NCBI RefSeq assembly: GCF_965641715.1
Contig: NZ_OZ282453.1
Source: Escherichia coli
GTDB taxonomy: Bacteria > Pseudomonadota > Gammaproteobacteria > Enterobacterales > Enterobacteriaceae
Strand: one strand, 5' to 3'
Length of the DNA: 64,000 nucleotides
Shown: positions 15,001 through 21,000 of the stretch, piece after piece
How positions within the stretch are numbered: the first letter of the stretch is position 1
How the letters are laid out: each line of letters starts with the position of its first letter
Position numbers: made by a program

Positions 15001-18000
15001 AATTTCCTTTTACTTTTTACAAAGCGTTTAATCATGGCTGATTATCTCTAAGCGTAGTAACAGCCTTGTGCGAAACATGTTACCAAATCGCCATTTCAGT
15101 GTATCCGCAGTTAGGCTGCCACTTCAAGGATTCCTAATTACATGGTACGTAAGCGTAAAATCCCGTTGGTTGGCGGGTAATAACTCTGATCAAATCTCCC
15201 TTGTCTTTTGCTCTTACGTATGCAGCTCTTGTGTATTCAACCCAGGCCTCCAGTTCAGCAATACGCTTACTTCCATCCGAGATAACACCTTCTACTCACG
15301 CTGCTCGTTGAGTTTTGATTTTTGCTGTCTCCAGCTCAACACGCAGTTTCCCCACCGTTAGCGCAATATCCTCGTTATCCTGGTCGCGGCGTTTGATGTA
15401 TTGCTGGTTTCTTTCCCGTTCATCCAGCAGTGTCAGCACAATCGATGGTGTTACCAGCTCATGGAAAAGGTCCGCGTCAAATCCCCAGTTGTCATGCATT
15501 GCCTGCTCTGCCGCTTCACGCAGTGCCTGAGAGTGAATTACGCTCACTTCGAACCTCTCTGTTTACTGATAAGCTCCAGATATTCCTGGCAACTTGCACA
15601 AGTCCGACAACCCTGAACGGCCAGACGTCTTAGTTCATCTATCGGATCGCCACACTCACAACAATGAGTGGCAGATATAGCCTGGTGGTTCAGGCGGTGC
15701 ATTTTTATTGCTGTGTTGCGCTGTAATTCTTCAATTTCTGATGCTGAATCAATGATGTCTGCCATCTTCCATTAATCCCTAAATTGTTGGTTAATACGCT
15801 TGAGGGTGAATGTGAACAATAAAAAAGGAGCCTGTAGCTCCCTGATGATTTTGCTTTTCATGTTCACCGTTCCTTAAAGACGCCGTTTAACATGCCGATC
15901 GCTAGGCTTAAATGAGTCGGTGTGAATCCCATCAGCGTTACCGTTTCGCGGTGCTTCTTTAGTACGCTACGGCAAATGTCATCGACGTTTTTATCCGGAA
16001 ACTGCTGTCTGGCTTTTTTGATTTCAGAATTAGCCTGACAGGCAATGCTGCGAAGGGCGTTTTCTTGCTGAGGTGTCACTGAACAAGCCCCATGTCGGCA
16101 AGCATAAGCACACAGAATATAAAGCCCGCTGCCAGAAAAATGCATTCAGTGGTTGTCATACCTGGTCTCTCTCATCTGCTTCTGCTTTCGCCACCATCAT
16201 TTCCAGCTTTTGTGAAAGGGATGTGGCTAACGTATGAAATTCTTCGTCTGTTTCTACTGGTATTGGCACAAACCTGACTCCAATTTGAGCAAGGCTATGT
16301 GCCATCTCAATACTCGTTCTTAACTCAACAGGAGATGCTTTGTGCATACCGCCTCCCGTTTATTATTTATCTTCTCAGCCAGCCGCTGTGCTTTCAGTGG
16401 ATTTCTGATAACAGAAAGGCCGGGAAATACCCAGCCTCGCTTTGTAACGGAGTAGACGAAAGTGATCGCGCCTACCCGGATATTATCGTGAGGATGCTTC
16501 ATCACCATTGCTCCCCAAATACAAAACCAATTTCAGCCAGTGCCTCGTCCATTTTTTCGATGAACTCCGGCACCATCTCGTCAAAACTCGCCATGTAATT
16601 TTCATCCCGCTCAACCACGACATAATGCAGGCCTTCACGCTTCATTCGTGGGTCATAGTTGGCAAAGTACCAGGCATCTTTTCGCGTCACCCACATGCTG
16701 TACTGCACCTGGGCCATGTAAGCCGACTTTATGGCCTCGAAACCACCGAGCCGGAATTTCATGAAATCCCGGGAGGTAAACGGGCATTTCAGTTCAAGGC
16801 CGTTGCCGTCACTGCATAAACCATCGGGAGAGCAGGCGGTGCGCATACTTTCGTCGCGATAGATGATCGGGGATTCAGTAACATTCACGCCGGAAGTGAA
16901 CTCAAAGAGGGCTCTGGCGTCGTTCTCGTACTGTTTTCCCCAGGCCAGCGCCTTAGCGTTAACTTCCGGAGCCACACCGGTGCAAACCTCGGCAAGCAGG
17001 GTGTGGAAGTAGGACATTTTCATGTCAGGCCATTTCTTTCCGGAGCGGGGTTTTGCTATCACATTGTGAACTTCTGAAGCGGTGATGACGCCGAGCCGTA
17101 ATTTGTGCCACGCATCATCCCCCTGTTCGACAGCTCTCACGTCGATCCCGGTACGCTGCAGGATAATGTCCGGTGTCATGCAGCCACCTTCTGTTCAGAG
17201 GCTTTCTGTTTCAGGAATCCAAGAGCTTTCACTGCTTCGGCCTGTGTCAGTTCTGACGATGCGCGAATGTCGCGGCGAAATATCTGGGAACAGAGCGGCA
17301 ATAAGTCGTCATCCCATGTTTTGTCCAGGGCAATCAGCAGAGTGTTAATCTCCTGCATGGTTTCATCGTTAACCGGAGTGATGTCGCGTTCCGGCTGACG
17401 TTCTGCAGTGTATGCGGTATTTTCGACAATGCGCTCGGCTTCATCCTTGTCATAGATACCCGCAAATCCGAAGGCCAGACGGGCACACTGAATCATGGCT
17501 TTATGCCGTAACATCCGTTTGGGATGCGACTGCCACGGCCCCGTAATTTCTCTGCCTTCGCGGGTTTTGAATGGTTCGCGGCGGCATTCATCCATCCACT
17601 CGGTAACGCAGATCGGATGATTACGGTCCTTGCGGTAAATCCGGCATGTACAGGATTCATTGTCCTGCTCAAAGTCCATGCCATCAAACTGCTGGTTTTC
17701 ATTGATGATGCGGGACCAGCCATCAACGCCCACCACCGGAACGATGCCATTCTGCTTATCAGGAAAGGCGTAAATTTCTTTCGTCCACGGATTAAGGCCG
17801 TACTGGTTGGCAACGATCAGTAATGCGATGAACTGCGCATCGCTGGCATCACCTTTAAATGCCGTCTGGCGAAGAGTGGTGATCAGTTCCTGTGGGTCGA
17901 CAGAATCCATGCCGACACGTTCAGCCAGCCTCCCTGCCAGCGTTGCGAGTGCTGTACTCATCCGTTTTATACCTCTGAATCAATATCAACCTGGTGGTGA

Positions 18001-21000
18001 GCAATGGTTTCAACCATGTACCGGATGTGTTCTGCCATGCGCTCCTGAAACTCAACATCGTCATCAAACGCACGGGTAATGGCTTTTTTGCTGGCCCCGT
18101 GGCGTTGTAAATGATCGATGCAGAGTGATTCAAACAGGTGCTGGGGCAGACCTTTTTCCATGTCGTCTGCCAGTTCTGCCTCTTTCTCTTCACGGGCGAT
18201 CTGCTGGTAGTGACGCGCCCAGCTCTGAGCCTCAAGACGATCCTGAATGTAATAAGCGTTCATGGCTGAACTCCTGAAAATGGCTGTGAAAATATCGCCC
18301 GCGAAATGCCAGGCTGATTAGGAAAACAGGAAAGGGGGTTAGTGAATGCTTTTGCTTGATCTCAGTTTCAGTATTAATATCCATTTTTTATAAGCGTCGA
18401 CGGCCTCACGAAACATCTTTTCATCGCGAATAAAAGTGGCGATAGTGAATTTAGTCTGGATAGCCATAATTGTTTGATCCATTTTTTGGGACTCCTGGCT
18501 GATTAAGTATGTCGATAAGGCGTTTCCATCCGTCACGTAATTTACGGGTGATTCGTTCAAGTAAAGATTCGGAAGGGCAGCCAGCAACAGGCCACCCTGC
18601 AATGGCATATTGCATGGTGTGCTCCTTATTTATACATAACGAAAAACGCCTCGAGTGAAGCGTTATTAGTATGCGGTAACGCAGCGCTCAGGCGGCTTTG
18701 ATAGTCATATCATCTGAATCAAATATTCCTGATGTATCGATATCGGTAATTCTTATTCCTTCGCTACCATCCATTGGAGGCCATCCTTCCTGACCATTTC
18801 CATCATTCCAGTCGAACTCACACACAACACCATATGCATTTAAGTCGCTTGAAATTGCTATAAGCAGAGCATGTTGCGCCAGCATGATTAATACAGCATT
18901 TAATACAGAGCCGTGTTTATTGAGTCGGTATTCAGAGTCTGACCAGAAATTATTAATCTGGTGAAGTTTTTCCTCTGTCATTACGTCATGGTCGATTTCA
19001 ATTTCTATTGATGCTTTCCAGTCGTAATCAATGATGTATTTTTTGATGATTGACATCTGTTCATATCCTCACAGATAAAAAATCGCCCTCACATTAGAGG
19101 GCAAAAAAGATTTCCAATAATCAGAACAAGTCGGCTCCTGTTTAATTATGAGCGACATTGCTCCGTGTATTCACTCGTTGGAATGAATGCACAGTGCAGT
19201 GTTTATTCTGTTGTTTATGCCAAAAATAAAGGCCACTATCAGGCAGCTTTGTTGTTCTGTTTACCAAGTTCTCTGGCAATCATTGCCGTCGTTCGTATTG
19301 CCCATTTATCGACATATTTCCCATCTTCCATTACAGGAAACATTTCTTCAGGCTTAACCATGCATTCCGATTGCAGCTTGCATCCATTGCATCGCTTGAA
19401 TTGTCCACACCATTGATTTGTATCAATAGTCGTAGTCATACGGATAGTCCTGGTATTGTTCCATCACATCCTGAGGATGCTCTTCGAACTCTTCAAATTC
19501 TTCTTCCATATATCACCTTAAATAGTGGATTGCGGTAGTAAAGATTGTGCCTGTCTTTTAACCACATCAGGCTCGGTGGTTCTCATGTACCCCTACAGCG
19601 AGAAATCGGATAAACTCTATTCACCCCTACAGAGAGCAAAAGAGAAACGCCGATGAACAACTCATGGTGGCAGGAACTAATGCATTTTTTCCTGCAAGGA
19701 ATGACACTTAAACAGTTGATTCATATGCTAATCATCCTGATCATATTGATTATTGTTATGCCGGTAAGCGTAAAAGAATGGATAAACCTGCATAATCCAG
19801 AAATCCTTCCTCATTACTGGATGTATTACATCCTGTTGTTTTGCGTTAGCTATGTGCTTAACGGCGTTGTTAATTCCGCTTATCACGCTGTGACTGAAAG
19901 AATTGAGGTATCCGCTGCTCAGAAGCGCAAATCTAAAGAAGAAAAATATGTGCAAGATTTGTTTGATTCATTAACTCTTGGAGAAAGAGCGTATTTGGCA
20001 TTCGCTGTAGCCGCTAATAACCAGCTACAAACGGAAAAGGGAGCTCATGAATCAATTTCATTGCTCAAAAAAGGACTCCTCGTTCGAAGGCCTCCTGCTG
20101 TTGGATATCCTGATACTGACCGTTTCGTTATCCCTGAAAGCTATAGACATGAGTGCTACATTAGGTTTGCCGGGAAGGCAGACAGCCTTATGGATGAACT
20201 TATCGCTCAGGATAAGCATGGCAAAAACAAGTAATTAGCAAATGAATTTATCATCTCGCCGTCAGTTGTTTTGATTTCCGGTAGCCTGCCGCGTAAATGG
20301 CTACGTTTGGCAGGCAAATACTTCCACTGCATTCATCTGCCTTCTTGCAGCGAAGGCTTCCGAGTGATGCTGCTTTGTCTGCTCTGACGCAACCAGAGAG
20401 CTTTAGCGCAATTTTTCGCGCCAGTCGCTGTTCTTGCATTGCCTGCTCACGTTGAGCCTGTCTGCGTGCTCTGCGGCGATTTCTGGCGTTATCGTCAGCC
20501 AGATATGTAATGACTACTGCCATGTTGACCTCCGATGATTGACTTTGGCGGTGACGCGCCGGGTGCTTATCTTCCGGTTGCCGTCGTGCAGCTGCACTTC
20601 ACGTCACCCCAAAGCCAACTACTCTTTGGTTCCCGCATTTCGGCGGGACAATCCCATCAATGTTAAAGAGCCTGCCAATCTGTTCCGTTTGGCTACCAGC
20701 GTCCTGCTGATGACTTGAATTTAAGATTTCTTTAATTGTTGGTCAAGGGTGTTTTTGAAGAAAACTTAAATTTTATTGCGAAGTTTAAGTTTTGCTTTGA
20801 TTTTTAAAGGAAAGAAAAAAAGGGGCGAATGCCCCTTATGGAAGGTTTGCTATTTTTGCATCGACAACTACACCGATGATTTTGCAGTTCCCGTTGATCT
20901 CAATCATCGGATATTGTGGGTTAAGTGGTTTTAGAAACCTTCTGCCAGCATCAATAACTAACTTCTTGAAAGTTGCCTCGTTTTCTCCTTCGAGCTTTGC

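Follow-up and report, generated by a model that had tools for sequence, protein, structure and literature searches.

Which form of Gam can be made by a prophage in which the long gam frame is interrupted, and does such an interruption mean that the gene is decaying? We address these questions with the interval 17967–20234 of a 64,000-nucleotide (nt) stretch of Escherichia coli DNA (contig NZ_OZ282453.1; hereafter, the window), which lies in the early-left region of a lambdoid prophage and carries the genes gam, ral and sieB. An earlier note on this DNA, made from the sequence alone, had listed these genes as an anti-defence and exclusion cluster of the early-left operon, and had remarked that the upstream extension giving the long Gam isoform is out of frame. 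What was obtained directly comprises the identities of the genes and their intact frames, the indel with the frequencies of its alleles, and the conservation of the sieB promoter, of the start of Esc and of the sas region. Taken together, these results make us highly confident that the interval is a standard accessory segment of the lambdoid early-left (pL) region, carried by a prophage inserted at argW in E. coli, with a gam gene that encodes only the short form of the protein (GamS), a natural allele with four T residues in the gam leader (the 4-T allele) and a sieB gene of the P22 type.

Alignment with the lambda gam region, the check that the earlier note had proposed, bears out the loss of the long form: a 1-nt insertion is present and the long frame is not intact. 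In lambda, the ATG at position 33232 opens a continuous 138-codon frame that encodes the 138-amino-acid (aa) GamL. Relative to this sequence (J02459; PhiR63_2 was also aligned), the window has a single extra T in a T-run (AGCTATTTCAGG in lambda and AGCCATTTTCAGG in the window; in the longer context, AGCTATTTCAGGAG vs. AGCCATTTTCAGGAG, TATTTC becomes CATTTTC). The extra T lies 14–17 nt upstream of the gamS ATG (18263), and the distance from the GamL ATG to the gamS ATG is 121 nt in the window vs. 120 in lambda. Because one extra T shifts the frame, the 40-codon GamL extension cannot be made here; no continuous frame leads from the upstream ATG into gamS. In the gam frame itself, a TAA precedes the gamS ATG by 57 nt and none of the codons ATG, GTG and TTG occurs between the two; consequently, GamS is the only possible product of this gene. 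The lambda GamL ATG (18384) now opens a 50-codon open reading frame (ORF) that is out of frame with gam and for which no Pfam or PHROG family was matched. No ribosome-binding site is found for this ATG in TATAAAAAATG, and the ORF is probably just untranslated leader together with the 3′ end of kil.

By contrast with the extension, the GamS frame is intact, and its AGGAG ribosome-binding site is conserved in lambda. The protein, which differs from lambda GamS by two substitutions and is the commonest variant among the IMG/VR matches listed, matches PF06064 with 216.8 bits (cut-off 25), residues 1–98 covering positions 1–98 of the 98 in the profile. It also matches the solved GamS chains 5mbv_A and 2uuz_A (residues 1–98, E 2.5e-61), which correspond to the RecBCD-binding GamS dimer. 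As for the other named genes of the interval, these matches are far above the chance level. GamS inhibits RecBCD, and the structural and biochemical work on Gam has been done on this form, equivalent to residues 41–138 of the long protein (PMC5218532). GamS is sufficient for the activity, as this 98-aa form is the one with solved structures and inhibits RecBCD (PMC5218532), and Gam is predicted, from its family and structure matches, to inhibit RecBCD in this prophage as well. Two isoforms have nevertheless been described, both of which potentiate quinolones when overexpressed (PMC5218532). In the record of phage 933W, gam is already given as a gene of 297 nt and 98 aa.

To count the alleles of the gam leader, we used short queries built so that no 28-nt megablast seed could match without crossing the indel, and searched 5,426 complete E. 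coli genomes. The window-type 4-T allele was found at 2,899 places in 2,589 genomes, while the lambda-type 3-T allele was found at 973 places in 901 genomes, so that the former is approximately three times as frequent as the latter. A third allele, with one nucleotide missing from a C-run, was found at 32 places in 24 genomes. Thus, the long frame is intact in, at most, about a quarter of the gam leaders counted. Among phage genome records, the 4-T and 3-T alleles are equally frequent (90 records each), and the former is present in 933W, VT1-Sakai, Min27, BP-4795, ev207, ev017, Stx2-converting phage 86 and PhiR63_2. The split of gam can already be read in public annotation, as the record of Stx2-converting phage 86 names the 153-nt out-of-frame ORF “gam alternate”. 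An exact-flank scan of IMG/VR indicated, among the matches listed, that the −1 allele is an independent deletion in the C-run just past the kil stop codon, and that the GamS frame has 98 codons in all but two of the listed matches that are long enough to show it whole (the exceptions being a premature stop at codon 41 and read-through of the normal stop).

These data bear on the most obvious alternative, namely that the frameshift is a degenerative lesion and that gam is becoming a pseudogene in a decaying prophage. There are, in fact, pseudogenes further along the early-left region of the same prophage (an Ea22-like gene with a frameshift, an ORF interrupted by an internal stop and some truncated fragments). 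However, neither the GamS ORF nor its ribosome-binding site is damaged, and the protein encoded is the variant seen most often among the IMG/VR matches listed; the 4-T allele, in addition to its thousands of occurrences in E. coli genomes, is carried by phages that form plaques or can be induced (933W and ev207, for example); and the independent −1 indel likewise breaks only the extension. We consequently regard decay of gam as very unlikely, and the pseudogene reading of the indel was rejected on the distribution of the alleles. The 4-T allele is a widespread natural variant, and the commoner one in E. coli genomes, and not a lesion or a sign of decay.

It might also be argued that the extra T is a homopolymer error of sequencing or assembly and that the true sequence has GamL in frame, as a single base in a T-run belongs to the commonest class of long-read errors. 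Nevertheless, the run is only 4 nt long, the 4-T allele is linked to a neighbouring single-nucleotide polymorphism (AGCCA vs. AGCTA) in all the haplotypes seen, and the same allele recurs in thousands of independent assemblies and in the phage records of many groups (e.g., 933W, AF125520, and VT1-Sakai, AP000400). An error was therefore ruled out by the linkage and by this recurrence, and we find it hardly conceivable. A third alternative accepts the indel but supposes that the 4-T allele still yields long Gam: if tRNA-Phe slipped by +1 on U-UUU-C, the ribosome would return to the gam frame shortly before the gamS ATG. The upstream frame reads CAU UUU CAG, so that a +1 shift to UUC would retain a Phe codon and enter the gam frame, and the upstream ATG and its ORF are conserved. 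The element that should stimulate slippage is not, however, properly placed, as AGGAG lies downstream of the slip site and not upstream. Furthermore, the GamL ATG has no ribosome-binding site, overlap with kil accounts for the conserved state of the first 46 nt, and the independent −1 allele breaks the frame elsewhere. On balance, slippage seems extremely improbable.

A further interpretation of the natural 4-T variant is that the 138-aa GamL is a peculiarity of a minority allele, found in lambda and its close kin, rather than a conserved product. We consider this probable because approximately three quarters of the counted E. coli gam leaders, through two independent indels, are unable to encode GamL, while GamS is almost always kept. 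Several observations call for caution. In 71 complete in-frame sequences, five of the seven sites that are polymorphic past the kil stop are third-codon positions when read in the GamL frame, a weak hint of constraint (binomial p ~0.045, with small numbers), and the changes in this frame are five synonymous and four non-synonymous, compared to 1:7 and 2:6 in the other two frames (again, small numbers); for comparison, gamS itself shows 26 synonymous and 48 non-synonymous changes, which gives no clean signal at such divergence. GamL may, thus, be of some value in the lineages that keep the long frame, and it is active when overexpressed (PMC5218532). Moreover, genome collections are clonally biased towards clinical clones and allele counts are not independent events, and the IMG/VR scan, a sample of at least 120 contigs and not a census, includes, among the matches listed, at least 79 with the lambda spacing, at least 28 with the additional T and at least 13 with the −1 allele. 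All the relatives that were retrieved are close, with no outgroup among them and, hence, allele counts carry no ancestral or derived polarity. Finally, for this prophage in particular, we infer the expression and activity of its genes by analogy with lambda and P22.

If GamL is indeed a minority-allele peculiarity, natural variation would settle which form of Gam matters, and the statement that Gam has two isoforms would hold for some phages only. That most of the counted E. coli leaders cannot encode GamL, with GamS almost always intact, supports GamS as the physiologically relevant inhibitor of RecBCD (and, reportedly, of Kiwa). Some caution is also advisable in taking the 138-aa annotation of lambda as the reference form of Gam. 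The features of the interval, including those that the earlier note did not list (kil, cIII and its RNA thermometer, ea10, orf28 and the region of tL2a/PreS, with 96–99% identity to lambda), are collected in the table.

Table. Position of genes, RNA elements and signals in the interval, with the evidence for each (window coordinates).
Feature	Coordinates	Strand	Evidence
gam, GamS only, 98 aa, RecBCD inhibitor (predicted)	17967–18263	−	PF06064, positions 1–98/98, E 3.4e-65
50-codon ORF from the lambda GamL ATG, out of frame with gam	18232–18384	−	ORF list
AGGAG ribosome-binding site, 7 nt upstream of the gamS ATG	18271–18275	−	direct reading; conserved in lambda
TTTT run with the 1-nt insertion (TTT in lambda) that breaks the GamL frame	18277–18280	−	alignment with J02459 and PhiR63_2
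kil, 47 aa, host cell division inhibitor (predicted)	18339–18482	−	PF06301, E 3.4e-16; phrog_3924, E 7e-34; PGAP
cIII, 54 aa, FtsH protease inhibitor (predicted)	18451–18615	−	PF02061, E 1.5e-30; PGAP
cIII RNA thermoregulator	18570–18628	−	Rfam RF01804, 88.5 bits (gathering score 50), E 3.3e-21
Terminator-like hairpin between ea10 and cIII	18645–18664	−	consensus scan; hairpin and T tract identical to lambda
ea10, 122 aa, DUF2528	18688–19056	−	PF10800, E 1.3e-47; 121/122 identical to lambda Ea10
Counterparts of the lambda tL2a terminator and of the small RNA PreS (LPR1)	19077–19164	−	terminator scan; identity with the lambda spacer
ral, 66 aa, restriction alleviation (predicted)	19239–19439	−	PF11058, E 1.7e-48
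orf28, 28 aa, MEEEFEEFEEHPQDVMEQYQDYPYDYDY	19423–19509	−	DNA identical to lambda orf28; phrog_16060, E 7e-19
sas antisense RNA counterpart, complementary to the sieB 5′ untranslated region and start codon	19532–19657	−	~95% identical to P22 sas over 126 nt
sieB promoter (RNA start at 19623)	19586–19616	+	mapped from the P22 annotation (BK000583); promoter 31/31 identical
sieB, 193 aa, P22-type superinfection exclusion (predicted)	19653–20234	+	PF14163, E 2.5e-22; phrog_1301, E 8e-122
esc, in-frame internal start at Met25 of sieB	19725–20234	+	P22 esc coding sequence begins at codon 25

The three genes are present where the earlier note had placed them, as indicated by the ORF list, the Pfam scan and the annotation of E. 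coli TL20 discussed below, but its assignment of all of them to the early-left operon holds for gam and ral and not for sieB. The direction of sieB, on the opposite strand, is antisense to transcription from pL, and the gene has a predicted promoter of its own; it is, therefore, contained within the operon without being one of its members. Moreover, sieB is not the lambda gene. Its product matches PF14163 with 79.5 bits (cut-off 26) and is 82.7% identical to P22 SieB over 191 aa and 99% identical to SieB of ev207 and PhiR63_2, while BLASTP found no significant similarity with lambda SieB (NP_597779; 20% identity, E 0.58). Judged by these comparisons, sieB is the P22 allele, and the window and lambda proteins are related only at the level of their Pfam family. 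SieB contains a hydrophobic N-terminal segment (approximately residues 16–45). When SieB, Ea10, Ral and Gam were scanned with PADLOC, no significant match was found; the lone hit, a non-significant one, was that of the 2TM-TIR model (E 0.0078) to this hydrophobic N-terminus.

In P22, SieB forms a module with Esc and sas. The protein halts macromolecular synthesis midway in the lytic cycle of superinfecting P22-like phages (bioRxiv 10.1101/2023.08.15.553423), while Esc, an in-frame truncated form of SieB, acts as its inhibitor, and the sas RNA switches translation between SieB and Esc (PMC13397905). All these elements have counterparts in the window. In addition to the promoter, the Met25 codon (ATG 19725) and the 20 nt upstream of it are conserved with P22, and the sas counterpart was recognised by comparison with the 127-nt P22 sas sequence printed in PMC13397905. 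The folding energy of this counterpart is no better than that of shuffled sequence (z = −0.5) and gives no structural argument and, therefore, the identification rests on identity with P22 sas. Rfam holds no family for sas or for PreS. At the sequence level, the P22-type SieB/Esc/sas module thus appears to be complete. The pL operon, to which gam and ral belong, is repressed. By analogy with P22, sieB is expected to be the only one of the three genes that acts in the lysogen; consequently, an assay of exclusion by the lysogen would measure the effect of sieB alone. Within the sas/sieB-promoter region, there is also a direct repeat, CTGTAGGGGT, with two copies approximately 35 nt apart (19569–19622, minus strand). 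This repeat is kept in the window, P22 and lambda, and the junction between lambda-like and P22-like sequence lies beside its sieB-proximal copy.

Ral, in turn, is practically the lambda protein: 65 of its 66 residues are identical to those of lambda Ral (K7T being the sole change), and its match to PF11058 (162.5 bits) extends over the full length (1–66/66). Accordingly with its family, it is predicted to alleviate type I (EcoKI/EcoBI) restriction. The orf28 peptide, whose gene overlaps the start of ral, is extremely acidic and aromatic, and has its own PHROG family.

Between ral and ea10, the spacer is identical to that of lambda at 189 of 196 positions. In lambda, tL2a is the 3′ end of PreS/LPR1, an Hfq-dependent small RNA that up-regulates dnaN (bioRxiv 10.1101/2024.10.31.621285). 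The counterpart in the window has its 3′ hairpin and T-tract at 19083–19104, while its 5′ end is set solely by the ~88-nt size of the lambda RNA. This hairpin and that between ea10 and cIII are the two terminator-like hairpins that the consensus scan found in the interval. The position of the second one agrees with that of the tL2 terminator cluster in lambda. When Rfam was used at a permissive threshold from 16000 to 23000, the cIII thermometer was the only element obtained, apart from two snoRNA hits that are due to chance.

The gene order orf28-ral-ea10-cIII-kil-gam-bet-exo is that of the lambda pL region (J02459/NC_001416, 32.0–34.4 kb), and DNA identity with lambda is 97.9% from bet to just upstream of sieB, orf28, tL2a/PreS and the cIII thermometer all being conserved. 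The homology with lambda stops where sieB starts, at a mosaic junction located at ~19632. The window differs from lambda in the extra T interrupting the GamL frame, in sieB and N, and in the immunity region. The P22 sieB/esc/sas segment (BK000583, 29.69–30.34 kb) shares with the window the promoter, the transcription start, the Met25 start of Esc and the sas region, as well as the location of sieB between ral and an N-like gene and on the opposite strand. Unlike P22, however, the window has E. coli as host, the C-terminal third of its SieB is more diverged and its N-like protein is just 36% identical to gp24. P22 carries abc/erf instead of gam/bet/exo. The phages PhiR63_2, ev207 and ev017 are 98.6–98.7% identical to the window over the whole 2.4-kb interval, including sieB. 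The Stx phages that carry the 4-T leader, and these three coliphages, nevertheless differ in their immunity, integration and late regions; the prophage of the window is inserted at argW and carries intS at one end and torI at the other end.

With activities and regulation inferred from the established work on lambda and P22, the region may be proposed to work as follows. On induction or infection, N-antiterminated transcription from pL would pass through orf28, ral, tL2a/PreS, ea10, cIII, kil, gam, bet and exo. Gam would be made only as the 98-aa GamS, from its own AGGAG site, and Ral would alleviate type I restriction. In the lysogen, sieB would be transcribed from its own promoter, and SieB, presumably associated with the membrane, would abort the lytic growth of superinfecting lambdoid phages. 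Esc, made from the internal start of sieB, would neutralise SieB, and the phage's own sas RNA would shift translation from SieB to Esc, so that the phage would escape its own exclusion.

The 2.4-kb interval is 100% identical to part of the chromosome of E. coli TL20 (NZ_CP191567.1), and the RefSeq/PGAP annotation of this identical sequence gives the same gam, ral and sieB calls as our ORF list and Pfam scan. It is already known from lambda and P22 what these genes do, and RefSeq names them correctly; the cluster is, in this sense, ordinary. The functions that the earlier note had called established are so, and its judgement that the cluster serves as context of low interest was apt, as the significance of the locus beyond annotation is slight. 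Its complete set of lambda-type and P22-type accessory genes does provide a context for judging the other genes of the window.

According to the RefSeq annotation of the surrounding 64 kb, the prophage is lambdoid, has a length of ~43 kb and is inserted at the tRNA-Arg gene argW, with intS at ~54–55 kb of the window (intS/argW extending to ~55.3 kb) and torI at ~12.8 kb. The integrase and the excisionase-like torI are, thus, at opposite ends of the prophage, as in KplE1/CPS-53. The element is a mosaic, with a P22-like immunity region, lambda-like replication and nin genes, and tail genes of the baseplate type, so that an early region of the lambda/P22 type is joined with myovirus-like baseplate genes in one prophage. 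A HEPN-domain gene is found among the tail genes, and there are several hypothetical genes from intS to the tail-fibre genes. Next to sieB, the N-like antiterminator gene (20251–20523, minus strand), considered here together with 20524–20720, is labelled “hypothetical” by PGAP. Its product is itself a mosaic: relative to P22 gp24, the C-terminal end is conserved and the arginine-rich N-terminus is different. Similarly, the boxB hairpin of nutL is unlike that of P22, while boxA, OL/pL and the c2-type repressor are P22-like. Finally, a tRNA-Asn gene (26147–26221) separates the Q antiterminator from the lysis genes; it is at this site that Stx phages carry tRNAs and toxin genes.

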